This document shows positions 1 through 41,457 of a stretch of 41,457 nucleotides of DNA, in pieces (position 1 is the stretch's first letter; each line of letters begins with the position of its first letter). A model generated the notes under the pieces. The model saw nothing but the letters and a program-made list of their open reading frames with translations, was not told the origin of the DNA and ran no database searches. This DNA is from a virus. Both the position numbers and the translations under genes were made by a program. Location of the stretch: positions 1 to 41,457 of the IMG/VR virus record IMGVR_UViG_3300045988_094226; one strand, given 5' to 3'.

Positions 1-55
1 AAAATTCTATGTATGATTTCATGTTCTTCTCCTCGGCTTGTCTCTTGCCTGTTTC
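1..55. repeat. Terminal direct repeat. Bases 1-55 are identical to 41403-41457, consistent with circular closure or assembly overlap of a roughly 41.4-kb element
   Basis: Exact 55-nt identity between the two window ends, read directly. The helicase start codon (41422-41424) lies inside the repeat and equals 20-22, overlapping the Rep stop (19-21) as ATGA. Confidence 0.9.
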
Positions 56-855
56 ACAGTACATTCTTTTTTCTTCTTCGGTACTCTCGACTGTGTAATC
101 GGCCATACGTTCCTTTCGTTTACTTTGTACATTCTGTAAAACTGGTAAGGGAATCCGTCTGCTGTATATCCGCTTTCTACTTTGACTATCTGGTAGCCTT
201 TTTTCGGTGTCGGATTGTCTTTCCATTTCCGGGCGTAGATGGTTACCTTTTTCACGTTTGGCTGCTTTAGATTTTTAGACGGTACCCATCGGATTTTCTG
301 TACGGCATTTTCGTTTCGGATTTCTTCATCTGTTTCTTTCACAAAATATTCCGCAAGTCTCATGCAGTCTTCTGGGTTTCCATCAAAAAACCTGAATGAT
401 CTGTAATTGAATTTTGCCCACGGCCAGCATTCATTGATTTCTGATCTTGATATTCCTCCTTCGTTAATCAGAACGTGATGATGTACTCGATGGCGGACAT
501 GTTCTGTGACGTAGATATATTTCAGTTCCGCATTTTTCTTTTTATATTTTTTGCGGAGGTCTCTGATAAATTTTCTTATTCTGTTTTTTGCTTCTTCTGC
601 TGTCGGCTCCGGATTTGCATATGTCAGGTCGATACGCAGGTCATCTCTTTTAAAATTGGTTGCTATAAGCCGGTAGAGTTTTGTTTTCGCCCGGCGGGAG
701 TTTCTTTTCTTGAGTCCCTTATCTGTTTTTTGAATATTGGGACCTCTGACTCTGTTTCCCCCTAATCTGTATGTGTGATATTTTTTCACTTCATAAATTC
801 CGGGTGCTTGAAATATTTCTTTTCGGTACGGCACTTTTTTAAATTCCTGTTCCAA
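19..855 (-). CDS. Rolling-circle replication initiator, HUH endonuclease of the pC194/pUB110 (Rep_1-like) family
   Basis: Motif I-like IDLTY, motif II HVHHHVLI (HUH) and motif III LAEYFVKE with catalytic Tyr. TTG start at 855 has a weak RBS; GTG at about 834 has AGGAA upstream. Stop overlaps the helicase ATG across the circular junction. Confidence 0.55.
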   Translation of the reverse strand: MEQEFKKVPYRKEIFQAPGIYEVKKYHTYRLGGNRVRGPNIQKTDKGLKKRNSRRAKTKLYRLIATNFKRDDLRIDLTYANPEPTAEEAKNRIRKFIRDLRKKYKKKNAELKYIYVTEHVRHRVHHHVLINEGGISRSEINECWPWAKFNYRSFRFFDGNPEDCMRLAEYFVKETDEEIRNENAVQKIRWVPSKNLKQPNVKKVTIYARKWKDNPTPKKGYQIVKVESGYTADGFPYQFYRMYKVNERNVWPITQSRVPKKKKECTVKQARDKPRRRT

Positions 856-877
856 GAATTAACTACTATATCAAGTC

Positions 878-905
878 CTCAAAAGGGGCTGAAACCCCCT
901 TTTTT
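878..905. terminator. GC hairpin GGGG-N6-CCCCC with T6 on the plus strand (T4 on the minus strand). It sits beside a minus-strand CTTGATA motif (875-869), which is the pC194-family dso nick consensus
   Basis: Sequence AAAAGGGGCTGAAACCCCCTTTTTT. On the minus strand the motif is followed 5 nt later by CTTGATA. Confidence 0.35.
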
Positions 906-906
906 C

Positions 907-935
907 TTGACATTTTGTGCCGTTTCACTTATAAT
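907..935 (+). promoter_or_regulatory. Consensus sigma-70-type promoter TTGACA-17-TATAAT pointing rightwards, antisense to the rep leader
   Basis: TTGACA at 907-912, exact 17-nt spacer, TATAAT at 930-935. Confidence 0.55.
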
Positions 936-941
936 TTATGT

Positions 942-1000
942 AGTGGTTTGGTGCTACGGCACTTCCGCTCAGAGTTCTTTTCTGGGCGGTTTTATTTTTC
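942..1000 (+). ncRNA. Candidate countertranscript (ctRNA-like antisense RNA), about 58 nt, ending in an intrinsic terminator. It is antisense to the 3' end of the Zn-ribbon gene and the rep leader region
   Basis: Promoter 907-935 upstream. Hairpin 965-989 (8 bp, one G-U pair) followed by TTTATTTTT. There is no plus-strand ORF; pT181/pUB110-type RCR plasmids regulate rep with ctRNAs. Confidence 0.4.
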
Positions 1001-1225
1001 TTCTTTTTCGTTGTTCTCTTCTTCTGGTTCTTCTGTCTTTTCCCGATATATGCATCTCTGCAAAAAGTCCAGGTAATGTTCGCATTTTCTGCAGTGTTCC
1101 TGGCATATATTAGCTTTTTCTTTTCTGCAGCATACGGTCTGGAATACTTTTGCTTTGCATACACGGCATTTTCTGTTCCGGTAAACTTCTACTATTTTCC
1201 CGCCCGCTAATTTCATGACTGCCAC
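992..1225 (-). CDS. Small Cys-rich zinc-ribbon protein (CxxC...CC...CxxHCxxC)
   Basis: ORF track, 77 aa with multiple paired Cys/His. Overlaps the upstream ORF by 13 nt. Confidence 0.45.
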   Translation of the reverse strand: MAVMKLAGGKIVEVYRNRKCRVCKAKVFQTVCCRKEKANICQEHCRKCEHYLDFLQRCIYREKTEEPEEENNEKEEK

Positions 1226-1554
1226 TCTATACTCACCCTTTCCTTTTTATCCCCACTTTGGACGCTCCAATACCCGCGGGGATTTTTTATTATCTTGAAT
1301 TTTCGTCCACCGGATGATGTATAAGTGTTGTTTTCATCCATAAAAAATACCGGCATTTCTTTCTGTGGTATCAGCCGTTCTTTATCCAGTGTTTCTTCTA
1401 TCAGCCAGCCGATAGGTTTCTTCCGGACGTTATCCCACAAAAGATATATGTCAGTACTTCGCCCACTTGGGCTTTTTCGGAATACATCCCGCTCTTTTCT
1501 TTTTGATTCTTCGTTCTTCTTCCGTTTTATAAAGTTCCTGCAGTTCCATTTCAT
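1213..1554 (-). CDS. Hypothetical protein. The 5' boundary is uncertain: it overlaps the HNH-like gene 3' end in another frame, so this is either genuine overlapping genes or one frameshifted gene
   Basis: C-terminal 90 aa look protein-like (DIYLLWDNVRKKPIGWLIEE...). ATG at 1554 is preceded by GGAG with an 8-nt spacer. Confidence 0.3.
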   Translation of the reverse strand: MKWNCRNFIKRKKNEESKRKERDVFRKSPSGRSTDIYLLWDNVRKKPIGWLIEETLDKERLIPQKEMPVFFMDENNTYTSSGGRKFKIIKNPRGYWSVQSGDKKERVSIEWQS

Positions 1555-1888
1555 GTTCTTTTCTCCATTCTTTAACCGCCTTGCAGTTAAGATATGTCCT
1601 GATTTGTTCATCCACGTACTGCTTTCTCGTGCCGGAGAGTCCGTGTGCTTTGAAACGGTGCATTTCGTATGATAAATGTATAAGATTATCTTCTTTATCC
1701 GATCCTCCGCTGCCTGCGTGTTTCGCATGATGGACTTCCCCGCGCGACGGCGGCCACTCTCCGATAATGGATTGATACGTTTCCGCCAGCTCCTCGTCCC
1801 TTTGTTTGACAAGCCGGCATAGTTTTCGGAATGCCGCTTCCGGTAGTTTGAATCTCACTTTTTTCTCCTTTTCTTTGAATATCTCCAT
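1451..1888 (-). CDS. HNH endonuclease-like protein (cysteine-less HNH variant)
   Basis: EVHHAKHAGSGGSDKEDNLIHLSYEMHRFKAH matches the HH...GG.D..NL..L(C..C)H...H HNH signature. The likely true start is GTG at about 1858, preceded by AAGGAG. Confidence 0.5.
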   Translation of the reverse strand: MEIFKEKEKKVRFKLPEAAFRKLCRLVKQRDEELAETYQSIIGEWPPSRGEVHHAKHAGSGGSDKEDNLIHLSYEMHRFKAHGLSGTRKQYVDEQIRTYLNCKAVKEWRKEHEMELQELYKTEEERRIKKKRAGCIPKKPKWAKY

Positions 1889-2009
1889 GTCTCATCGGCT
1901 CGATAAACTTTAAATGAACAGTCCCGATGGACAGGAACCATGTTTCCTTTTCCGTCTTTCGTCCACATCACATATTCAGCGGGAATTGCTTTCCTGCACT
2001 GGTGGCATA

Positions 2010-2369
2010 TCATTCTACGCTGCATATTTCCCCCGTCGGCTTCATTTCATAGATCTGCATATCCATTACATAGGCAGCGGCATATTCCTGATTGCACCCC
2101 CGGCTTTCTCTCCAGTTTCCGCAGAGGATAAGCGCGTTGCATCGCTGCAGCACTTCTAAGCAGTCTTTCATCGGCTTATGCTGATGCTCTTTGTCATACG
2201 GTGTATATCCCCAGTTGTGAAGTGGTGAAAACAACGTTTTTTCAGGGTATTTCTCCTGTAGCATTTTTAAATATGTTTGTACTTTTTCCTTGTTGCTTTC
2301 ATCGCCGCCGTAAGGATGGGCGATGTAAAGTAACTGCCCTTCTATATATGGATATTCCCTTTTCTTCAT
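2010..2369 (-). CDS. Hypothetical protein, DUF4406/nucleoside 2-deoxyribosyltransferase-like (YIAHPYGG...FSPLH)
   Basis: ORF track with start trimmed to MKKREYPY (RBS GGAGAGGAG). ATGA overlap with the upstream gene. Confidence 0.35.
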   Translation of the reverse strand: MKKREYPYIEGQLLYIAHPYGGDESNKEKVQTYLKMLQEKYPEKTLFSPLHNWGYTPYDKEHQHKPMKDCLEVLQRCNALILCGNWRESRGCNQEYAAAYVMDMQIYEMKPTGEICSVE

Positions 2370-2608
2370 GATTGCGCTCCTCTCCCTCTTCGAACAAGAA
2401 TGCACTTTTTCATTGTAGAAATGACTGTTTCCCTGACTTCCTGATCACTGCTCATCATCATCCCTATCATTCCTGCCGGGCATTTGGCACGATATAAACT
2501 ATCAACCGCCACTGCAATCGCCAGTGAAATAAACTTATCGTCATGTCCTTTTTCTGAAATGCTGAATTGTTCTAATTCATCATCTGCTCGTATCGTCAGT
2601 TCGTACAT
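2366..2608 (-). CDS. Hypothetical protein
   Basis: ORF track, 80 aa, translationally coupled to its neighbours. Confidence 0.3.
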   Translation of the reverse strand: MYELTIRADDELEQFSISEKGHDDKFISLAIAVAVDSLYRAKCPAGMIGMMMSSDQEVRETVISTMKKCILVRRGRGAQS

Positions 2609-2864
2609 GTCCTGCCGCCTTTACTTTGATAATTAATTCCTGCCCCGGCTGTACATTGCCGGGATCTTTGATATGGTTCTCTTTCAATGTGTTGTAGACC
2701 AGCTCCTGCATGTGGTCCTTATCACTAGCGACCCTTGCGCAAGCGTCCCACACACTTTCACCGCGCGCTACCGTGACTTTGTACGGTACGAGAGGTGGTT
2801 CTGGTTCGGCCGCGTATCCTGCCATGCAGACGATCGCCGTAAATACTGTTAAAAACGTACGCAT
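2580..2864 (-). CDS. Secreted LysM-like peptidoglycan-binding protein
   Basis: Signal peptide MRTFLTVFTAIVCMAGYAA, then YKVTVARGESVWDAC...GQELIIKV resembling LysM. Confidence 0.4.
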   Translation of the reverse strand: MRTFLTVFTAIVCMAGYAAEPEPPLVPYKVTVARGESVWDACARVASDKDHMQELVYNTLKENHIKDPGNVQPGQELIIKVKAAGHVRTDDTSR

Positions 2865-2943
2865 GATAACTTCTCCACGACCGCAATCATCATTGTCACG
2901 AAAACCGCCAGCCATAAATAATTTATTATCTTGTCTACCATTT

Positions 2944-3177
2944 TTACGCCCTCATCTTTCTAACTTCCGCCCGGAAATCATATCCGCTTTGTTTCATCTT
3001 CCGTTTCTGCGCATTCTCTTCCATCTTCTGCCGGATAGCCGATTCCGCATCTTCAGGGTCAAACAGATACGCTTTCCCTGACGGGATGAATGGTATCTCC
3101 CCTGTTCGGCACAGCATTCGTATCGTTGTGACCGGATATCCCGTTGCCTTGCAGAAATCCTTTGTGTTTGTAAGCAC
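2944..3177 (-). CDS. Excisionase-family HTH DNA-binding protein (Xis candidate or early regulator)
   Basis: FCKATGYPVTTIRMLCRTGEIPFIPSGKAYLF matches the excisionase/MerR-type HTH_17 pattern. Divergent from the lysogeny module. Confidence 0.45.
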   Translation of the reverse strand: MLTNTKDFCKATGYPVTTIRMLCRTGEIPFIPSGKAYLFDPEDAESAIRQKMEENAQKRKMKQSGYDFRAEVRKMRA

Positions 3178-3246
3178 GTCTTCCCTCTCTTTCTTTTTTA
3201 TTCACTTTCCTTTTGATATACTGTGTTCTGAAAGGATGTGATTTTT

Positions 3247-3684
3247 ATGCTCGAATTCAGCGATTTGACGCAATTTGACCTTAAAATCCTTGAATATGTA
3301 AAAAATAACGGATCGATTTCCGAAGAAAAAATTATTAGTCATTTCGATTCGGACCCCGACGTTACAAGCCTCCGCATTCAGGAACTTTCAAAAGTGTCTT
3401 ATAACATGAACTATCCCAATTACAAGGGACTCCGTATTCCTATTTCTGATTCCTCTTATCTTGATAAGGCGTATTCCCGTTACCATGATGAAGACGGCAT
3501 TCCTCAACTTGAATACACCGGAGTTGTTTCCATAAGCAGACGTGGTAAAAAGGCTATTCAGGACTGGAAACAAAATCATTCTTACAAAGCATGGAATAAT
3601 ATTGTTCGGTCAGATCTTGCGCTTGCTGTAGCAGTTTTATCTTTGATTTTGTCTTTTTATGCCGCTTTTTTTAAAACAGATTGA
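3247..3684 (+). CDS. Membrane-anchored winged-helix protein (N-terminal MarR-like HTH, C-terminal TM helix)
   Basis: DLKILEYVKNNGSISEEKIISHF HTH. C-terminal LALAVAVLSLILSFYAAFF TM segment. RBS AAGGA upstream of ATG 3247. Confidence 0.4.
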   Translation: MLEFSDLTQFDLKILEYVKNNGSISEEKIISHFDSDPDVTSLRIQELSKVSYNMNYPNYKGLRIPISDSSYLDKAYSRYHDEDGIPQLEYTGVVSISRRGKKAIQDWKQNHSYKAWNNIVRSDLALAVAVLSLILSFYAAFFKTD

Positions 3685-3757
3685 AAATAGCAAACACTAA
3701 CGAAATCACCGAAATAATAAAGGCTATATTCGCCAACTGTTTATCTGATACTTTCAT
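3671..3757 (-). CDS. 28-aa hydrophobic peptide MKVSDKQLANIAFIISVISLVFAIFNLF (type I toxin-like or holin-like small membrane peptide)
   Basis: RBS AGAGAGGTGAGGGA 6 nt upstream of ATG. Single TM helix. Own leftward promoter, with -10 TATAAG back-to-back with the plus-strand TATAAT. Confidence 0.35.
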   Translation of the reverse strand: MKVSDKQLANIAFIISVISLVFAIFNLF

Positions 3758-3776
3758 TCCCTCACCTCTCTTTCTT

Positions 3777-3805
3777 TTGCTTAACTCGTCACCTTCACTT
3801 ATAAT
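3777..3805 (+). promoter_or_regulatory. Promoter TTGCTT-17-TATAAT, copy 1 of a duplicated roughly 65-bp promoter/RBS cassette
   Basis: 3777-3782 and 3800-3805. The cassette (about 3767-3832) is repeated at about 4160-4228 with roughly 85% identity. Confidence 0.5.
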
Positions 3806-3829
3806 CGGTTTGAAAGGAGGTGAACCAAT

Positions 3830-4051
3830 ATGCAGTGCAAAATAAATACTCCGTTTGCAAAATCTCTGTCGGATATAAAAACAGAGATTTTGGAACAGAC
3901 AACGGATAAAATCCATACAAGACACACATATTCCAATGGCTTAGTATTGGAATATCTTGCTACCGCTGATGGCGTTTCCGTTTCTTCCAATTGGGGTTGG
4001 AAGAAAGAACCGGATGGCAGCCTTACGCCTGTTCCTGTGGTGAAATCGTAA
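3830..4051 (+). CDS. Small hypothetical protein (73 aa) driven by cassette copy 1
   Basis: ORF track. GGAGGTGA RBS 7 nt upstream. Terminator-like hairpin at 4096-4140. Confidence 0.4.
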   Translation: MQCKINTPFAKSLSDIKTEILEQTTDKIHTRHTYSNGLVLEYLATADGVSVSSNWGWKKEPDGSLTPVPVVKS

Positions 4052-4171
4052 TTTTATCTGCTCGGATGATGACTGCATCCGTAGATACGGTTACGGAAGA
4101 AGAGCCTTTTTCGATCCGATATGGGCTCTTTTTCAATTTCTTTTTTTCCATTTTTATTTCCTCTCTTTCTT

Positions 4172-4200
4172 TTGCTTAACTCATCACGCTCCTCTATAAT
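4172..4200 (+). promoter_or_regulatory. Promoter TTGCTT-17-TATAAT, copy 2 of the duplicated cassette
   Basis: 4172-4177 and 4195-4200. Identical architecture to copy 1. Confidence 0.5.
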
Positions 4201-4224
4201 TGGTTTAGAGAGGAGGTGAACCAT

Positions 4225-4434
4225 ATGACCGCTTACATAAAAGTAAAAGGGTATCAGGTTGTCAGTGTTATTAATATTGAAAAAATCGAGTATACTGATC
4301 CTATTTCCGAGTCATGTTCAGAAATTACCGACTTCAAGAAACTTCGGATTTATCCTGGATATCAATATGTTTTTGTCGGAAACGCTATCCTTCATGTCTT
4401 AGGCGAAAATATTGAATGTGTTTGGTTTGAGTAA
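4225..4434 (+). CDS. Small hypothetical protein (70 aa) driven by cassette copy 2
   Basis: ORF track trimmed to MTAYIKVKG. RBS GAGAGGAGGTGA. Confidence 0.4.
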   Translation: MTAYIKVKGYQVVSVINIEKIEYTDPISESCSEITDFKKLRIYPGYQYVFVGNAILHVLGENIECVWFE

Positions 4435-4609
4435 TTGTCATTTTTTTAGAATAAGAGTGCAGTTGCAGCTGTACTCTTTTCTTATTTCATCAATTATCTT
4501 CACTATTTCCTTGATTTCTGTTATTCGTGACAACTTGATCTCTACCTGTACTTCCAAATTTCCCATTTTCCCTCACCTCTCTTCCTTTAAAAATATATTT
4601 TGTGTCTTT

Positions 4610-4822
4610 TTAGGATACTCTTTCGCTAAAAAAAATAGCGTCTATCTCTTCCGGCTTTAATTTATACCTATCTTTTATGAAAAGTATTTCTGCCTGTCGA
4701 AAATCTGCCCCACCGTTGATTTTTAGATTTAATCGAGATAGGCTTATCCCTAACGCATTCGCTAAATCTTTTTGACTATCTCCATATTTCATCATTTCTG
4801 CCCTCATCAATGGTTTATTCAT
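4610..4822 (-). CDS. Cro-like XRE-family HTH regulator
   Basis: SQKDLANALGISLSRLNLKINGG HTH. Divergent from the repressor. RBS GAGGTGA. Confidence 0.6.
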   Translation of the reverse strand: MNKPLMRAEMMKYGDSQKDLANALGISLSRLNLKINGGADFRQAEILFIKDRYKLKPEEIDAIFFSERVS

Positions 4823-4947
4823 TTTTTCACCTCGCTTTCTTTCAGTGTCTTTTCAGGACACCTTGATTGTATATCCGTTTTTGTGTCTTGTCAAGATACT
4901 TTTTCTTGTTTTCAAAAATTTTTATGGTATAATCAAGACACGAAAGG
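4823..4947. promoter_or_regulatory. Divergent cI/cro-type switch region with operators
   Basis: Perfect palindrome TCTTGTCAAGA at 4886-4896 and half-site TCAAGACAC at 4934-4942. Extended -10 TGgTATAAT at 4925-4933 for the repressor. Confidence 0.5.
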
Positions 4948-5406
4948 ATGGTTACGCATATGGAATTTAAAGATATCCTTTATACTTTAAGAAAAAAGAA
5001 TAAACTAACGCAGCAGGAAGTTGCAGAATATGTAGGGTTGCAAAAAGCAGCTATATACAAATATGAACACGGCTTGCTTGTTAATCCCAAACGATCATTG
5101 ATTTCAAAATTGGCTAAGTTATTTCAAGTTACCCCATCGTATATGATGGGATTAACCGATGATGATAAGTCTGCTCATGTGTCTCTTGGTCCATCCCTTA
5201 CCAAAAAGGACGAAAAAGACATCCAAAAAAGACTATCCGATATCTTAAATGATATGGACAGTCAGGATGCTATCGCCATGTATAACGGCGGAGAACCGAT
5301 GGATCCGGAAACACGGGAATACATGAAAGCATCTCTTGAAAATGCTCTCCGCTTTGCAAAATTAAAAGCAAAAGAAAAATTTACACCAAAAAAACACCGC
5401 AAATAA
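4948..5406 (+). CDS. XRE-family repressor (cI/ImmR-like, no S24 peptidase domain)
   Basis: KLTQQEVAEYVGLQKAAIYKYEHG HTH. Followed by an ImmA-type protease, as in ImmR/ImmA systems. Confidence 0.7.
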   Translation: MVTHMEFKDILYTLRKKNKLTQQEVAEYVGLQKAAIYKYEHGLLVNPKRSLISKLAKLFQVTPSYMMGLTDDDKSAHVSLGPSLTKKDEKDIQKRLSDILNDMDSQDAIAMYNGGEPMDPETREYMKASLENALRFAKLKAKEKFTPKKHRK

Positions 5407-5417
5407 AGGAATGTATT

Positions 5418-5861
5418 ATGGACATAAAGAAATTCGCGAATAAACTTGCCGCTGCTCACGATACAAGAAACCCTTTTCGTATAGCATCTGAAAACCATAT
5501 CCATATCTTATATGAAGAATTAGGTGAAAATTTAGGGTATTTCAGTCAGCTGTTTCGTATTAAAACGATACGGATAAATGGTCATGCCGATCCTTTTCTC
5601 TATCCGTTTATCTGTGCTCACGAACTCGGTCATGCGCTGCTTCATCCGCATGCCGGCACTCATGCTTTCAATAGAAATTCTTTTATTGCTAATTGCAAAA
5701 TTGAAAAAGAAGCGAATCAATTTGCCGTAGAATTGCTATTCCCTGATGAGTTGATAGCTGGTCATCCGGAAATAGACATTTATAATCTGGCGCGGACATT
5801 CGGTATTCCATATCAACTGGTTTATCTTAAGTCCATTTCTTACAGAGCACGTCATTTATAA
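5418..5861 (+). CDS. ImmA/IrrE-family zinc metallopeptidase (anti-repressor protease)
   Basis: HELGHALLH HEXXH motif. Gene order repressor then protease. Confidence 0.7.
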   Translation: MDIKKFANKLAAAHDTRNPFRIASENHIHILYEELGENLGYFSQLFRIKTIRINGHADPFLYPFICAHELGHALLHPHAGTHAFNRNSFIANCKIEKEANQFAVELLFPDELIAGHPEIDIYNLARTFGIPYQLVYLKSISYRARHL

Positions 5862-5875
5862 AAAGGGGATTAATT

Positions 5876-6532
5876 ATGAAAAGGTTCTTGGCTGGTGTGT
5901 TTGTAATATCTGTTATTCTTTTATCCGGATGTGGGGGTGCAGGTAACAGCAGTAATAAAAACAGTAAATCTGTCACTTATTCCACAGAACAGAAATTTGC
6001 AGCGAACACCGAAATCTTGAATATTCTTCCTACAATGAGAAAAACCCATGATGATGTTGACAAAATGGACATATATACCAGTTTGGCAACTGAATCATAC
6101 CCTCCCCAAGATGGTCTATATTGGAAATTAATTGTAAATAAAGGCTATGTCTTCGAATATTTTACAATCGTTAATTTTACAAGTGGTATTGAATGGGTAT
6201 TTTGGGATGATGTCGTTTTTTCCACAAATGAAGGGAATTGGACATATCACATCGGGTCTTTTGCCGGACAGTCAGGAAATGGGAAACGCACTCAAATAGT
6301 TATGGGCGGTAAGTATGAATTTTTAAATGTCTCTATTGATAAAATTGCTCCAGGCTTGGAAAAATTGATAAAAGGAACTAACCCGATTATTCGTTTAAGA
6401 GGTAAGGAATTTGTTTATGACATTAAACTCACGGATAATGATATGAATATAATAAATACTGCTATGTATACCTATGAACAATTAAAAATTACAGGAAACA
6501 AGATTTCTTTTGATAATACTGAAAAGAATTAA
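5876..6532 (+). CDS. Lipoprotein (candidate superinfection-exclusion protein)
   Basis: Signal peptide with lipobox LLSGC. Sits in the lysogeny module between ImmA and int. Confidence 0.55.
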   Translation: MKRFLAGVFVISVILLSGCGGAGNSSNKNSKSVTYSTEQKFAANTEILNILPTMRKTHDDVDKMDIYTSLATESYPPQDGLYWKLIVNKGYVFEYFTIVNFTSGIEWVFWDDVVFSTNEGNWTYHIGSFAGQSGNGKRTQIVMGGKYEFLNVSIDKIAPGLEKLIKGTNPIIRLRGKEFVYDIKLTDNDMNIINTAMYTYEQLKITGNKISFDNTEKN

Positions 6533-6552
6533 TTGGTAATCGGAGGGATACT

Positions 6553-7257
6553 ATGGACTTTAAAGATCCTAAAAACAAAGTATACTTACAAAAAGCCATT
6601 TCATCTCTGTCAAAAGACTATTCCAACATGTTAATTTCAATGACAAATCAAGATGATTCTAATTACAAGAGGGCAGCTCTTCTTTACTACTGGCTACGCG
6701 ACTATAGGAACTATGTCAAAAATGAACCAAAATTCAATTCTGTTTATACCCCGCCTTTCCGACGTGGGAACATAGCAAATATTAATTTCGGCTTTAATTT
6801 GGGCAGCGAACTCGGCGGACTGCACTATGCAATAGTTATTTCTGACAGTAGACCTACCAATCCCATGCTGATAGTCGCTCCTATGACTTCATTTAAACCA
6901 AGCCACCAATTAAATGATTGTGAAATATTTATAGACAACCAACTATTTTTACAATTGAAAGGGAAACAAGATGCCCTTGTACAAACATTAAAACATCAGC
7001 GTGCTACTTCCATCGATAGTGAATCGGATGATATCAATTCCAAATTAGATCAACTCCAAAAAATAAAAAAACAAATTCAAAAACTGAAAAATGGAAGTAT
7101 AATCAATATCAGTCAAATTTGTGCAATAAGTAAAATGCGGGTGATTGATCCGCAAAGTCCCCTTGATGTATTTTATAATATTTCAGTTTCATCTGACGTA
7201 TTAGATAAAATAGACAATAAAATAAAACAGTTTTTTATGAATCCTAACAAACCTTGA
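6553..7257 (+). CDS. Extended PemK/MazF-fold protein (234 aa) with a 65-aa N-terminal extension and a roughly 55-aa coiled-coil insertion. No adjacent antitoxin
   Basis: FRRGNIANINFGFNLGSELGGLHYAIVISDSRPTNPMLIVAPMTS matches the MazF/PemK core (rGdi..v.f....GsE..g.RPalV.s.......v.v.P.Ts). Confidence 0.5.
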   Translation: MDFKDPKNKVYLQKAISSLSKDYSNMLISMTNQDDSNYKRAALLYYWLRDYRNYVKNEPKFNSVYTPPFRRGNIANINFGFNLGSELGGLHYAIVISDSRPTNPMLIVAPMTSFKPSHQLNDCEIFIDNQLFLQLKGKQDALVQTLKHQRATSIDSESDDINSKLDQLQKIKKQIQKLKNGSIINISQICAISKMRVIDPQSPLDVFYNISVSSDVLDKIDNKIKQFFMNPNKP

Positions 7258-7260
7258 CAT

Positions 7261-7289
7261 TTGACATGAATCTTCGCTTCTGATACAAT
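7261..7289 (+). promoter_or_regulatory. Consensus promoter TTGACA-17-TACAAT
   Basis: 7261-7266 and 7284-7289, exact 17-nt spacer. Confidence 0.5.
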
Positions 7290-7295
7290 GTGGTC

Positions 7296-7405
7296 ACAAC
7301 TTGAGGAGTACTCCTCAAATAAATTATGGACTTTGCGGCATGCCCGCACTACCGTAGAAAGACCTCGGCCTTGTATCATTTAGGTGCGAGGTCTTTCACG
7401 TTTCA
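7296..7405 (+). ncRNA. Candidate structured sRNA or int leader. It has a perfect 18-bp palindromic hairpin (7301-7318), a GCGGCATGCCCGC hairpin (7336-7348), and a terminator-like hairpin (7358-7396) with a T-rich tail
   Basis: Promoter directly upstream. No ORF. Three consecutive stem-loops between the MazF-like gene and int. Confidence 0.3.
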
Positions 7406-7464
7406 CTTCTTTTTAATCATAGATGATAACCTGTGACTGCTCTACACTATATTGAGGTGATCTT

Positions 7465-8541
7465 ATGAAACAATATAAAAGAGGTTCTTTAATCTACGAT
7501 AAACTCCATGACAGTTATCGTGCTTTTATCATGATCAACGGAAAAAGATATTCTAAGCGTTTTAAGAAAAAAGACGATGCTATGGATTGGATGTCACGGC
7601 AGAAAATAGCAGAGCGTGACGGTAATTTCGTTGAACCATCAGATATGCTTGTCGGTCAGTGGCTTTTGTATTTCCTTTCTACTTATAAAAAAGATACTGT
7701 CAGAGCCAGTACATACGAACGATATCTCTATCTTGCCGCAAAGATTGAGCCTATTTCAAAAATCCCTCTCCAGTCTTGTACCGTGTCTCATGTACAAGAA
7801 TTGTTAAATAGTTTAACTCCGGACTGTTCCCGTAAAGTTCATGTTCTTTTACATGCTGCATTTCAGCAAGCTGTAGATCTAAGTATTATCCATAATAATA
7901 TCGTCCGTCTTTCAAAAGCCAAAAAGATTGTCCGTGATGAACCCGGCATATTTAACAAAAATGAAATTAACAAAATTCTTTCTTACGCAAAAGATAAAAT
8001 CTCCGCTTTCTATCCCATTTTCCTTTTAGCGGCTCATACCGGCATGCGGAGAGGTGAAGTGCTTGGTTTGCGTTGGAAAGACGTAAATTTGAAGAATAGC
8101 ACCGTTACCATCCGCCAGCAATTGCAGCGTGTCGGCAGTGACATTACATTTCAGCCTCCGAAAACAAAATCAGGAAAAAGAAAAATCTCAATCCCCGCTA
8201 CGGTCACCGCTGCACTGCAGGAATTGAGAAATAACGAAAAGACAATAGATATCAAGCAAGAGACGCTTGTTTTCAGAAATGCAAATAATAACCCTATCCG
8301 CCCTGAGGCGTTGGAGCGTGCATGGAAGAAAGCAATTACACAATGCGAACTGCCTTATAGAAATTTCCATTGTTTGCGGCATACCCACGCCACTTTATTA
8401 TTAGCCGCCGGTATTCCGATCATTGAAGTGTCCCGCCGGTTAGGTCATGCGAGAGTAAGCCACACATTAGATCTGTATGGCCATGCTATCCCAAGTTTTG
8501 ATGATCGGATTATAGAAAAAATTAATCAGATTTATGGTTAA
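7465..8541 (+). CDS. int: Tyrosine site-specific integrase
   Basis: Phage integrase C-terminal motifs including RHTHATLLLAAG, HARVSHT and LDLYGH (R..H..Y). Adjacent to attP. Confidence 0.9.
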   Translation: MKQYKRGSLIYDKLHDSYRAFIMINGKRYSKRFKKKDDAMDWMSRQKIAERDGNFVEPSDMLVGQWLLYFLSTYKKDTVRASTYERYLYLAAKIEPISKIPLQSCTVSHVQELLNSLTPDCSRKVHVLLHAAFQQAVDLSIIHNNIVRLSKAKKIVRDEPGIFNKNEINKILSYAKDKISAFYPIFLLAAHTGMRRGEVLGLRWKDVNLKNSTVTIRQQLQRVGSDITFQPPKTKSGKRKISIPATVTAALQELRNNEKTIDIKQETLVFRNANNNPIRPEALERAWKKAITQCELPYRNFHCLRHTHATLLLAAGIPIIEVSRRLGHARVSHTLDLYGHAIPSFDDRIIEKINQIYG

Positions 8542-32977: not shown

Positions 32978-33163
32978 TTATCGGTTTCGTTTTCGGCGCT
33001 TCCGATTTGAGGGCTTTTGCTTTGTGGCTTGTACCGCCCAGATTTGGACGATTACATTAATCACGATTGCGATTAGCCACTGCCAGTCTTGCTTTTCTAT
33101 CATTCTCACCTCCTTTCTGTATATATTATATATCTTTTTCGGTATACTGTCAAGTGTTTTCAT
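32978..33163 (-). CDS. Small membrane protein with a basic C-terminus
   Basis: ORF track, 61 aa. TM WQWLIAIVINVIVQIWAV. Confidence 0.3.
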   Translation of the reverse strand: MKTLDSIPKKIYNIYRKEVRMIEKQDWQWLIAIVINVIVQIWAVQATKQKPSNRKRRKRNR

Positions 33164-38636: not shown

Positions 38637-38926
38637 TGAATACCTCCTATATCTCTTATGTACCGTTTATATCCGTTTTTTATTCTTTCAAACTCAATGG
38701 CCATCATGATTTCTTGCGGACCATCTTCATATACTTTCTTAATGGCTGCTTTTATGATGACTATCGGGCTGGTAATCAGTGTTATCAGTGACGCCAATAT
38801 TACTACACCGGCTATGGTTATCAGAGCGGCAATCGCTCTTCCCACTCTGCACGGAATCATACCGTATACAAGCTTCTGCCATTTCCTATAACCTTTATAT
38901 GCATTGATATAATCTATTTCGTTCAT
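38633..38926 (-). CDS. Membrane protein, hypothetical
   Basis: TM AIAALITIAGVVILASLITLITSPIVII. ATGA coupling. Confidence 0.35.
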   Translation of the reverse strand: MNEIDYINAYKGYRKWQKLVYGMIPCRVGRAIAALITIAGVVILASLITLITSPIVIIKAAIKKVYEDGPQEIMMAIEFERIKNGYKRYIRDIGGIQ

Positions 38927-41424
38927 TTTCCCTCCATGAAATCAAAGAGTGTCGGTGTTTCCTGGTTATCTTCTTCCCGCTTGAGATACCAGCATCCGTC
39001 ACGGTAGTATTCCGGATTGAGTTCTATTCCTATGCCTTTCCGCCCTGCTTTCATGGCTTCCAGCGGTACTGTCATCAGTCCGCCGAAGGGGTCAAGCACG
39101 GTTTCTCCTTCGTTTGTGTACCGGTTAATCAGTCGGTCTACTATGTCAAACTGGAGAGGACAGAGGTGCATTTGTTTTCTCCTTTGTGATTGTTCTGTGT
39201 TGAGTGTTCTCATACGGTTCACATCGTCCCACACGTCAGGAGACCAGCTCGCTGGATCTATGCACATAAATGTCGCGGGCAGTTTGTTTTTTTCGTCCAT
39301 CGCATTGGCCATCTCTACATGCTTATCAAAGTCATACACGGTTTCTTTACTGTATTTGTTGTACAGTTTTCGTATATCCGATATGGGCATGTCTTTTAGG
39401 TCGTCAACGGACAGCTGCCTGTTTCCGCTGCTTCTCCAGAATGCATGAGCGTCTAATTGCCATTGCCCGCGGGTATATTCTTCTTTACTCTTTGTGACAG
39501 GTGTATCTGCATAGGCTCTTGATGTATCCGTAGGGAGCTTTCTGAACAGCAGGATGTATTCCGGGCAGCCTACTCCCATTTTTGTTCCGTCCTTGCACTG
39601 CTCCGTCCATCCAAGACGGTATGTCTGATTGTTCTCCCGAACCACGTCGGTTATGACGGTTATCATGCCGAAGAATTGGAAGCCGTGTTTCATGTAGTGC
39701 ATGATGGTCAATGCATGGAACGGTTCTATGGTTGGCATGCCTGTTCCCGTTGCGTTCCCGAATAGTACACGGTCTTTCACGTGGCATGCATATACTCTTC
39801 CGGGCTTCAAAATTCTAAGTAAATTCGGCGTTAAATAATCCATCTGCTCAAAAAATTTGTCTGTATTTTCGTTATGCCCGAAATCGTTATAGCTTGCGCA
39901 GTATTCATAGTGATTTCCAAACGGAATTGATGTAAGAAGCATGTCCACTGAGTTATCTTGCATTTTCCCCGTTTCTTCAACACAGTCGCCATGTATCGCG
40001 ATGTAGTTTTTCCCTTTTGTTATGACTTCTTCCACGCCTATACTCCTTTGCATCTCAATGATGGCATCGTTTCTTGACAGTCCATATTTCCTGACTATTT
40101 CTTCCATGCTTTCCGTGAGTTTGTTATATTGCTCCCATTTCTTTTTCAGTACTTCTAGCACCTGCTGTTCTGTTTCCATGTATATGATGTCTATAATGAC
40201 AGGTTTTATTTGTAGGAAGCGGTAACACCGGTGGATGGCTTGGATAAAGTCGTTAAACTCATAGTCAATCCCCATAAATATCTGGCGATGGCAATGTTTT
40301 TGGAAGTTACATCCGCTCCCTGATAGTTCTTTTTTTGTAGCAAGGATACGAAAGTCTCCCTTTGAAAAGCCGATGGTGTTTCTTTCTCTTTCGTCCATAT
40401 CTTGTGAGCCGTAGATAAATTTAGCTTCTGGGATTGCATATTTGATGGCATGACGCTCGCTTTCCAGATCGTGCCATATAATGAAATGTTCATCAGGTGA
40501 TTCGTCGATAATCCGTTTGGTTTCTGCCAGCCTGACATCGATGCTCTCTCTTTTCTCTCTGGCCGCTGCCGAAAGTCCCACGGCAAAGTCTTTTATAAGT
40601 TTGACCTGCCCGTTCTTTTCTTCTTCATTCACGGGTTTTGTGTTTGCCAGCATGTGGTAATTCACTTGCAGTGGCGGAAGGTTATATCCTTCATCGCTGT
40701 ACCCCAGATCAGAGGGCTTTTGAATAAATAATGCCCAGGTAGATAGCCACAGCCAGAATTCTTTTTCTTTATGCGGATAGAGAGTGAGGTTATTTGCTTT
40801 TGTACTGTCCCGCTGAAAGAAGCGTGTTAATGCCTGCCCCGTATCCATAACTTCCAAGTATCCGCCATAGTGAATAAGTTCTTTATATCTATTTGGCGCA
40901 GGTGTAGCCGTGGCAACAAGTTTATATTTCACGCCTTTAAATTTTGGCAGAAATGTCTGATATGTTTTGCTGCCGAAGCTTCTTAAAACGGACGCTTCGT
41001 CTAAGCTGCATGCCGTGAAGTAGTGAGGATCTATATCTCCGTCACGAACTCTTTCATAGTTTGTAATTACTATTCTGTTATCTGCGGCTTTGACTTCTTC
41101 CATATTTCTTACATATGTCGGAGCAGGGATATTGAGCAGATGAACCGCGTCTTCCGCAAATTCCTGCTTGACCCCCAACGGACAGACAATCAACGCTTTA
41201 CCGCCTATTTTCTTAGTGAGTACACGTCACCATTCCAATTGCTGTATACTCTTCCCCAGCCCGAATGCTTCAAACAATGCCCTGCGCCCGCCTTTGAGCG
41301 CCCACAAGACAGCATCTCTTTGATGTGGTTTCAAGACGGAACTTATATCCGCCGGACTGACTTCTATTCCTGATACTGGTGCTTTTATCACTTTATCTTT
41401 CAAAAATTCTATGTATGATTTCAT
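38923..41424 (-). pseudogene. SNF2-family helicase fused to a C-terminal N6/N4 DNA methyltransferase domain, interrupted by one in-frame TGA (about 41227-41229) between helicase motifs I and Ia. Either read through or a pseudogene
   Basis: LKPHQRDAVLWAL...GLGKSIQQLEW-TGA-RVLTKKIGGKALIVCP. DEAS box (SLDEASVL). C-terminal VLDPFGGLMTV AdoMet motif and SIPF catalytic-like motif. TGA is otherwise used as a stop in this genome (ATGA overlaps). Confidence 0.7.
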
Positions 41425-41457
41425 GTTCTTCTCCTCGGCTTGTCTCTTGCCTGTTTC

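Follow-up and report, generated by a model that had tools for sequence, protein, structure and literature searches.

HUH replication initiators (Reps) are annotated routinely in tailed phages and have hardly been studied outside phages of the P2 type. Here we analyze one such Rep, together with the DNA upstream of its gene, in a viral genome of 41,457 nucleotides (nt) (IMG/VR record IMGVR_UViG_3300045988_094226), the whole of which is referred to as the window. The original prediction for this DNA was a rolling-circle replicon of the pC194/pUB110 plasmid type, with a CTTGATA nick motif and a counter-transcribed copy-control RNA (ctRNA), captured by a temperate phage that might live as a phage-plasmid. 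Every sequence element that it named is present in the window, and the module that these elements form is best described as rolling-circle initiation under probable antisense-RNA control, which belongs to a large lineage of Bacillota phages in its own right and has at its center a family of single-tyrosine HUH Reps carried by phages (PF23343 / PHROG 3584).

The closest described control systems are those of plasmids. pSK41 RNAI of the staphylococcal RepA_N plasmids, pT181 RNAI and pIP501 RNAIII are short, terminated, untranslated RNAs from a rep-leader promoter that points away from rep, as is predicted for the RNA described here. In these systems, too, the target is found ~100 nt ahead of the rep start, the RNA consists of a 5' tail and two stem-loops, and three leader segments have alternative pairings of which one closes the rep ribosome-binding site, a likeness that supposes for the window a leader reaching this far upstream, as deduced from the operon structure. 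pSK41 RNAI induces sequestration of the ribosome-binding site from ~100 nt upstream, and the pre-emptor mechanism of pT181 follows a comparable alternative-pairing logic (PMC5703833). There are differences as well. The window is a 41-kb integrating phage with an unrelated HUH Rep family and no sequence or Rfam relationship to the plasmid systems; its middle pairing element lies inside the antisense promoter itself, and a hairpin and a putative origin box stand between the RNA target and the rep start. Moreover, equilibrium folding does not reproduce a switch in the phage leader, and regulation here is predicted from sequence.

For the origin, resemblances are found to the nick sites of both pC194 and phiX174. 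In pC194 (NC_002013) the rep strand has CTTGATA ~190 nt ahead of the gene, as TTATCTTGATAATAAGG, and, as in the window, the heptamer lies on the rep-coding strand beside a palindrome. The pC194 palindrome is 3' of the site, whereas the phage hairpin is 5' of it, and the core that is kept across the phage family is CTTGWT..TTAA and not CTTGATA. Both Reps have a single catalytic tyrosine with a conserved acidic residue one helical turn away. In pC194 Rep the catalytic residues are Tyr214, Glu210 and a second glutamate, Glu142 (PMC5703833), with the acidic partner at -4 from the tyrosine, whereas in the phage Rep it is at +4 (Y163...E167). A Rep_1 (PF01446) match, which pC194 RepA would lead one to expect, is absent, and hhalign between the two proteins gave a probability of 1.3%, a superfamily-level alignment of motif I and the HUH motif only. 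The gene A protein of phiX174 is, like our Rep, a phage HUH initiator. Its origin, annotated in the phiX174 record at 4306, reads CAACTTG↓ATATTAATAAC, with the cut at CTTG↓ATA, and the box in the window shares CTTGATAT / ACTTGATAT, followed by an AT-rich motif of the TTAAT type. The two proteins align weakly as profiles, with the HUH and WPxG segments in register and hhalign giving a probability of only 2.9%; the gene A protein has two catalytic tyrosines where the phage Rep has one, its origin lies inside gene A, and phiX174 is a single-stranded DNA virus.

The Rep of SIRV1 (ORF119, Rudiviridae) is an HUH initiator of a double-stranded DNA virus. SIRV1 is, unlike the phage studied here, an archaeal virus with a linear genome, the sequence identity of the two Reps is 12%, and the ORF119 chain (PDB 2x3g), with 116 residues, has neither of the beta-rich extensions by which the phage protein is longer at its N and C termini. 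Finally, the oop RNA of phage lambda resembles the predicted RNA as a short terminated antisense RNA next to a phage initiator gene, being made from a constitutive promoter just upstream of that gene and opposing the early operon. oop overlaps and destabilizes the cII mRNA, it is not known to control the O protein through leader structure, and lambda O is not an HUH nickase.

A Phage Family of HUH Endonucleases

Rep contains motif I (LRIDLTY), an HUH motif of the form HHH (HRVHHHVLIN) and motif III (LAEYFVKE, with Y163, K166 and E167), so that two of the motifs in the original prediction, IDLTY and AEYFVKE, stand as given and the third, HVHHHVLI, is to be corrected to RVHHHVLI. Across 20 homologues H118, H120, Y163 and K166 are invariant, as is E111 upstream of the HUH motif; E167 is nearly so, and motif I has the shared form (D/T)LTY. 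The protein has the metal-binding motif and the catalytic tyrosine, in a motif III of the YxxK type, that mark the HUH superfamily, as well as the HUH nuclease fold, and its AlphaFold model has a predicted local distance difference test (pLDDT) score of 81.9. It matches PF23343 (REP_ORF2-G2P) with 46.8 bits at a cutoff of 27.8 and PHROG 3584 ('replication initiation protein') over residues 8-249 with an E value of 1.6e-47; 20 of 20 homologues likewise match the PF23343 profile. Judged by these motifs and profiles, Rep is a genuine HUH endonuclease, and its description as an HUH rolling-circle initiator is borne out. Of the two possible start codons the GTG at 834 is the more likely because homologues begin MPYRKE and the 96%-identical homologue P0001 has 271 aa.

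Assignment of Rep to the pC194/pUB110 family, in contrast, does not survive a hidden Markov model search. The window protein matches neither Rep_1 nor Rep_2 at E ≤ 10, and none of the 20 homologues does so at E ≤ 1. A sequence profile search of the PDB with Rep returned only a marginal match to a CRESS Rep (E 0.32), and tblastn of Rep against the 72,556 plasmids of PLSDB gave zero matches. Among cultured phages, tblastn homologues are present in the Butyrivibrio phages Arawn, Idris and Closwp03 and in the C. perfringens phage PhiS63, while pattern scans confirmed by tblastn yielded 406 matches to the Rep family in IMG/VR and 121 in species-representative genomes. Wherever gene calls were read the neighborhoods are phage-type, with hosts that include Dialister, Megasphaera, Lachnospiraceae, Oscillospiraceae, Acetobacterium and Lacrimispora. 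The family is common in phages and prophages of Bacillota and has no plasmid homologues in PLSDB, and Rep is therefore a phage-family HUH initiator and not a captured plasmid gene.

Nor does the window look like a phage-plasmid. It encodes a tyrosine integrase, and Reps 96% identical to that of the window are encoded by prophages that have alr/hemN/lepA as chromosomal neighbors, in bacterial contigs 344 and 411 kb long. The integrated relatives have a module of the cI/ImmA type, with genes for an HTH_3 repressor, for an M78 peptidase like ImmA and for a Cro-like protein.

A Conserved Box Beside a GC Hairpin

In order to examine the DNA ahead of rep we used a comparative set of 165 rep-upstream regions, which include ~125-129 distinct sequences and come from homologues whose Reps are 31-98% identical to that of the window. 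CTTGATA lies at 869-875 on the minus strand, next to a GC hairpin (H2), as originally noted. By itself the heptamer lacks significance (14 copies of it are found in the window where 6.2 are expected); it is, however, the beginning of a conserved 24-nt box that occurs once in the genome. A position weight matrix (PWM) for the box, seeded with four variants (that of the window, a Lachnospiraceae-type sequence and two others) and refined iteratively on its matches, finds it in 114 of 125 distinct upstream regions as against 1 of 125 shuffled controls. Positions C1, T2, G4, T6 and T15 are near-invariant over the whole range of Rep identities. Exact CTTGATA is kept in all homologues with at least 49% Rep identity and in some at 31-43%, others having CTTGTTC, CTTGTTA, CTTGATT or CTCGATA. 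The box begins 30-140 nt ahead of the rep start and always directly after a GC hairpin.

H2 fills a near-constant gap (median 31 nt) between the -35 sequence of the antisense promoter described below and the box, across clades. It folds with a free energy (dG) of -5 kcal/mol or lower in 59 of 63 distinct versions, and its stem sequences are unrelated between clades. Two cultured phages illustrate the range of arrangements: PhiS63 has the box with the full antisense cassette, and Arawn keeps an exact CTTGATA box and the hairpin with no room for an RNA gene. Because it is unique in the genome, conserved in 114/125 regions and always placed just after the GC hairpin, we infer that the 24-nt box is the best candidate for the nick site, and we predict that the minus strand is cut at CTTG↓ATA, between 872 and 871.

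We also considered whether rep has a sigma-70 promoter of its own between H2 and its start codon, as TGATATAGT resembles an extended -10 sequence, and rejected this because other clades do not retain the critical T6 and because the box is compatible with no TTG-17-TATAAT geometry. Sense-strand promoters with at least 10/12 matches are found in just 2 of 129 upstream regions. In a Megasphaera-type clade (L160, L173, L178, L182, L044, L186) the hairpin and a box of the CTAGATTAAG/CTTGCTTAAAG type are kept, and an AT-rich TATATATATTATACATTATATAG stretch replaces the recognizable -35/-10 pair, so that this clade may have another form of antisense promoter or none.

A Probable Small Antisense RNA Gene

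On the far side of H2 a consensus promoter points away from rep and is followed by an intrinsic terminator, with no open reading frame (ORF) and no Shine-Dalgarno sequence in between, which agrees in every particular with the perfect TTGACA-17-TATAAT and ORF-less terminator first reported. Perfect (12/12) promoters of this kind number two in the genome as compared with 0.05 expected from first-order Markov simulations. The second, at 33125-33153 on the minus strand, is the only other one; it sits just past a terminator downstream of a gene for a DUF1492-type regulator and drives a short ORF for a hydrophobic peptide. The predicted RNA has an 8-nt 5' tail, a hairpin at 950-963 with a UACG loop and then the terminator; a 59-nt version (942-1000) folds with a dG of -22.9 kcal/mol (z -5.2).

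Searching the homologous regions for a promoter with at least 9/12 matches and a terminator 12-70 nt beyond its -10 box gave a counter-oriented cassette in 89 of 128 homologues, as against 3/128 in the sense orientation and 3/248 in segments drawn at random from these loci. From one clade to another the terminator stems differ completely. Within the clade of the window, three independent terminator variants are G.U on the plus strand and C.A on the minus strand, and one pair is compensatory (A-U to G-C). The first-hairpin loop is UACG, UGCG or UUCG on the antisense strand in 5 of 8 sequence types of this clade, these being the types in which it can be read. When the RNAs of the clade were aligned with MAFFT and submitted to RNAalifold the terminator arms were misaligned and 3 pairs were recovered. 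These observations strongly imply that the antisense RNA is transcribed, and its gene is very likely a conserved companion of the Rep family.

The claim that the RNA is antisense to the rep leader holds in part. Its orientation is indeed counter to rep. The only sequence to which it is antisense, however, lies 90-165 nt ahead of the rep start, where the preceding gene has its 3' end and untranslated tail, and the RNA could therefore pair with rep mRNA only if this is a read-through transcript of the early operon.

Rfam 15 has no match at 850-1000 even at E ≤ 10, and no gathering-level match was found at the cassette in 20 diverse homologous loci. A skipping-rope RNA (L068, 384-455, minus strand) and a fluoride riboswitch (L094, 742-813, plus strand) flank two distant rep homologues and are unrelated. 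The sequence TAGCAC in the window resembles the CS-6 motif of single-strand origins (sso), which we take to be TAGCGT, and was rejected as such a motif because it is not conserved in other clades.

Complementary Elements in the rep Leader

Transcription reading through from the small Cys-rich gene that precedes the locus is assumed to supply the rep leader. This leader, in the window, folds with a z score of -6.6. In its minimum free energy (MFE) structure element 2, ACGGCAC, pairs with the GUG start region (element 3), the AGGA Shine-Dalgarno sequence is in a stem, and CUUGAUA pairs with UGUCAAG of the -35 complement, around H2. Element 2 lies in the spacer of the antisense promoter and is complementary to element 1 as well, which is part of the region opposite the antisense RNA.

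The generality of these pairings was evaluated in 29 non-redundant clades by comparing duplex energies for matched and mismatched partners, with 20,000 permutations. Duplexes between the promoter-spacer segment and the rep Shine-Dalgarno/start region average -13.8 kcal/mol when matched and -9.9 kcal/mol when mismatched; for the promoter-spacer segment and the RNA-target region the values are -13.8 and -7.3 kcal/mol. For neither pairing was a better mean obtained in any of the permutations. In many unrelated clades the duplexes cover the Shine-Dalgarno sequence or the start codon, and in 14 of 29 clades the best partner of element 2 among 38 windows from -25 to +456 is the translation-initiation window. 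An RNAalifold alignment of a Lachnospiraceae clade (A2) contains a helix between elements 1 and 2 with compensatory triple changes, AAA/UUU to GGG/CCC, and in one locus (L031) all three elements have changed together. Direct pairing of the RNA 5' domain with the rep start is significant in the clade of the window (z ~ -3) and not generally. The co-varying complementarities suggest a control of Rep synthesis like that of pSK41 and pT181.

Proposed Mechanism and Alternative Readings

Taken as a whole, a phage-native HUH Rep initiation module, with the box as origin and an antisense RNA that controls Rep synthesis, is in our view rather probable. Rep would recognize the unique box on the rep-coding strand, just 3' of H2, and nick CTTG↓AT, priming rolling-circle (sigma) synthesis that would proceed in the direction of nearly all of the phage genes. 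The constitutive consensus promoter abutting the far side of H2 would fire away from rep and yield a terminated non-coding RNA of ~55 nt, complementary to the early-operon read-through transcript that bears rep. In this transcript element 2 could pair with the Shine-Dalgarno/start region (element 3), closing the rep start, or alternatively with the upstream element 1, within the target of the RNA; in the weakest step of the scheme, RNA bound to element 1 would free element 2 to sequester the rep start. The outcome would be a low level of Rep synthesis in the lysogen and a limited one in lytic growth, and the module could be a lock that keeps the prophage from nicking and replicating in the host chromosome.

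Several observations weigh against this scheme. About 30% of the homologues are without a detectable cassette, Arawn with its hairpin and box only being an example. No rep promoter was identified, and the leader is assumed from read-through past H2, which is itself weak-terminator-like. The CTTG of the box can pair in the leader fold with CAAG within the antisense -35 region, and part of the conservation of the box could therefore be structural. Equilibrium partition-function folding of 29 representative leaders with the RNA target blocked gave no consistent loss of access to the start site (mean unpaired probability 0.41 vs 0.40, p = 0.09), and the switch, if real, must therefore be kinetic or co-transcriptional. 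Sense and antisense duplex energies, moreover, have no strand asymmetry (p = 0.16 and 0.68), and it is possible that the complementarities act at the DNA level, for example as Rep-binding repeats.

The plasmid replicon of the original prediction, a Rep_1 protein with a CTTGATA double-strand origin and ctRNA copy control taken up by a temperate phage with a phage-plasmid lifestyle, would account for the HUH motifs, for a coding-strand CTTGATA ahead of rep like that of pC194, and for the counter-transcript cassette. It is already contradicted on family membership, by the 20 family members without a Rep_1/Rep_2 match, the 1.3% probability obtained with hhalign against pC194 RepA and the position of the acidic partner of the catalytic tyrosine (E167 at +4, Glu210 at -4), and on lifestyle, by the integrase and the chromosomally integrated relatives; with no homologue in PLSDB and a Rep family widespread in phages and prophages, we give this reading only the slimmest of chances. 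The module is ruled out as evidence for a phage-plasmid or for a recent plasmid capture. It might also be asked whether the conserved box is a nick site at all, or rather an RNA-structural or operator element of the rep leader, with the true origin elsewhere, for example inside rep. The phiX174 origin is annotated within gene A, that of P2 lies inside its initiator gene, CUUGAUA does pair with UGUCAAG of the -35 complement in the leader MFE structure, and CTTGATA by itself is common in the window. Five near-invariant positions over 31-98% Rep identity, however, go far beyond what pairing needs, the box is unique in the genome and agrees with the sequence that is cut in two HUH origins defined by experiment, and Arawn keeps box and H2 even without an antisense promoter to serve as pairing partner, all of which makes a purely structural or operator role unlikely.

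Another possibility is that the antisense promoter is an origin activator, in which case strong transcription away from H2 and the box would generate negative supercoiling or an R-loop there, directly behind the polymerase, and expose a single-stranded nick site, the RNA would have no function and the terminator would only protect the early genes. The -35 box does abut H2 with a spacing to the conserved box fixed at ~31 nt across clades, the complementarities are without strand bias, and HUH Reps need a single-stranded substrate and supercoiling (PMC5703833). Left unexplained would be the promoter-spacer partner on the rep ribosome-binding site in 14/29 clades, the co-variation of the RNA 5' domain with the promoter-spacer segment and the first-hairpin loops of UNCG type where these can be read, and we consider activation alone distinctly unlikely. 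Still less probable, and in our estimate very much so, is an RNA that acts on the upstream gene, in the manner of lambda oop, or as an sso-like lagging-strand primer on the displaced strand. The RNA does overlap the Cys-rich ORF at its stop codon and 3' tail, and it is complementary to the would-be displaced strand upstream of the putative nick site, the usual location of a plasmid sso (PMC5703833). The ORF overlap, however, is only a few nt, and different clades have different genes upstream; the promoter has the canonical consensus of double-stranded DNA, with a -10 box that lacks an intrastrand partner, and therefore would not form on single-stranded DNA.

Returning to the antisense-controlled module, we found no described origin or control element for this Rep family in searches of the literature and of Rfam. 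The comparative data provide a precise map, consisting of a unique 24-nt candidate nick site, a hairpin of fixed geometry and a conserved antisense RNA, that is valid for phages and prophages by the hundreds from gut and rumen, with hosts among Lachnospiraceae, Veillonellaceae, Oscillospiraceae, Clostridium, Acetobacterium and others. It is tempting to go further and to propose a widespread origin and cis-regulatory module of Bacillota tailed phages, in which an antisense RNA of ~55-75 nt absent from Rfam, a leader switch with the spacer of the antisense promoter as its middle element and a phiX174/pC194-like CTTG↓WT nick box together gate Rep synthesis and action; this we put forward tentatively, as a claim somewhat short of probable. 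If true, a large phage lineage would share as a standard feature the antisense-RNA control over initiator synthesis that is so typical of Gram-positive plasmids, how an integrated prophage silences a site-specific nickase would be explained, and a compact origin-plus-Rep cassette with a new sequence-specific HUH enzyme would be available for tool building.

Genome and Neighboring Genes

The features discussed above are collected in Table 1. The window ends with the same 55 bases with which it begins (1-55 = 41403-41457, an exact direct terminal repeat), and the assembly is therefore circular, with 41,402 bp; genes span the circle junction. With its integrase and Cox/HTH_17-type protein and with tailed-phage genes for large terminase, portal and major capsid (head) protein, the window is an integrating temperate tailed phage. 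SSB, dUTPase and DNA methyltransferases are encoded as well, and neither a polymerase nor a primase was found among the ~30 window ORFs scanned. A blastn search with the window gave no match to GenBank phages. Nearly all of the genes are on the minus strand, the exception being a plus-strand block at 3238-8541 in which the integrase is last, and GC skew is uninformative as an origin marker because nearly all genes lie on one strand.

Table 1. Positions in the window of the rep module, its leader elements and neighboring genes
Feature	Position	Strand	Basis or remark
rep, HUH rolling-circle replication initiator	19..834 (271 aa, GTG at 834); longer ORF 19..855 (278 aa, TTG)	-	motifs, profiles
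element 3, GUGCCGU, rep start codon and next four bases	828..834	-	complementary to element 2
Shine-Dalgarno sequence AGGA	~12 nt before rep start	-	sequence
conserved 24-nt box CTTGATATAGTAGTTAATTCTTGG (CTTGWT..TTAA), candidate Rep recognition/nick site	852..875	-	PWM conservation
hairpin H2 AAAAGGGGCTGAAACCCCCTTTTTT, GGGG/CCCC stem flanked by A-run and T-run	881..905	.	sequence
antisense RNA promoter, TTGACA (907-912), 17 nt, TATAAT (930-935)	907..935	+	12/12 match
TGTCAA	912-907	-	complement of antisense -35
element 2, ACGGCAC, inside promoter spacer	917..923	- (rep-sense)	complementary to element 1 and element 3
ATTATA	935-930	-	complement of antisense -10
predicted small antisense RNA, ~55-58 nt	942..999	+	promoter and terminator positions
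element 1, GUGCCGUAGCAC (GTGCCGTAGCAC, read 962-951)	951..962	-	target of first hairpin of the RNA, alternative partner of element 2
antisense terminator, stem 965-989, then U-tail 990-999 TTTTATTTTT	965..999	+	best-scoring terminator in 1-5000
A-run and hairpin H1	999-965	- (as read)	terminator only for opposite strand
end of Cys-rich ORF, first in rep-sense order	992	-	preceding gene
small Cys-rich ORF, 77 aa, several CxxC pairs	992..1225	-	directly upstream of antisense-RNA locus
Cox/HTH_17-type protein	2944-3177	-	profile matches
tyrosine integrase	7465-8541	+	profile matches
SNF2-type helicase fused to N6/N4 DNA methyltransferase	38923..41457, across junction	-	profile matches

Upstream of the antisense-RNA locus, the stop codon of the Cys-rich ORF falls within the A-run of the antisense terminator. 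The ORF has no Pfam or PHROG match, and Cys-rich frames occur at the same position in five homologous loci (L027-L031), some of them not called as genes. Downstream of rep, the helicase/methyltransferase gene starts with an ATG (22-20, or 41424-41422 on the circle) that forms an overlapping ATGA with the stop codon of rep (19-22, minus strand), which suggests translational coupling of rep and the helicase, the two replication genes. The latter gene is broken after codon 65 by an in-frame TGA (41227-41229, minus strand) at a position where 13 close relatives have Cys (TGY); intact, as in relatives, the gene encodes 830-833 aa. The TGA of this genome is either a nonsense mutation or a mistake of the assembly.

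At 4075-4107 on the minus strand an Rfam match to PhotoRC-I that is below threshold (23.4 bits as compared with a gathering score of 45, E 0.0075) is probably due to chance. An 11/12 promoter, TTGACA-17-TACAAT, is located at 4866-4894 on the minus strand and faces away from a plus-strand ORF of 152 aa that starts at 4948 and corresponds by position to the HTH_3 repressor of the integrated relatives; this promoter is likely the early promoter for the operon that contains rep.

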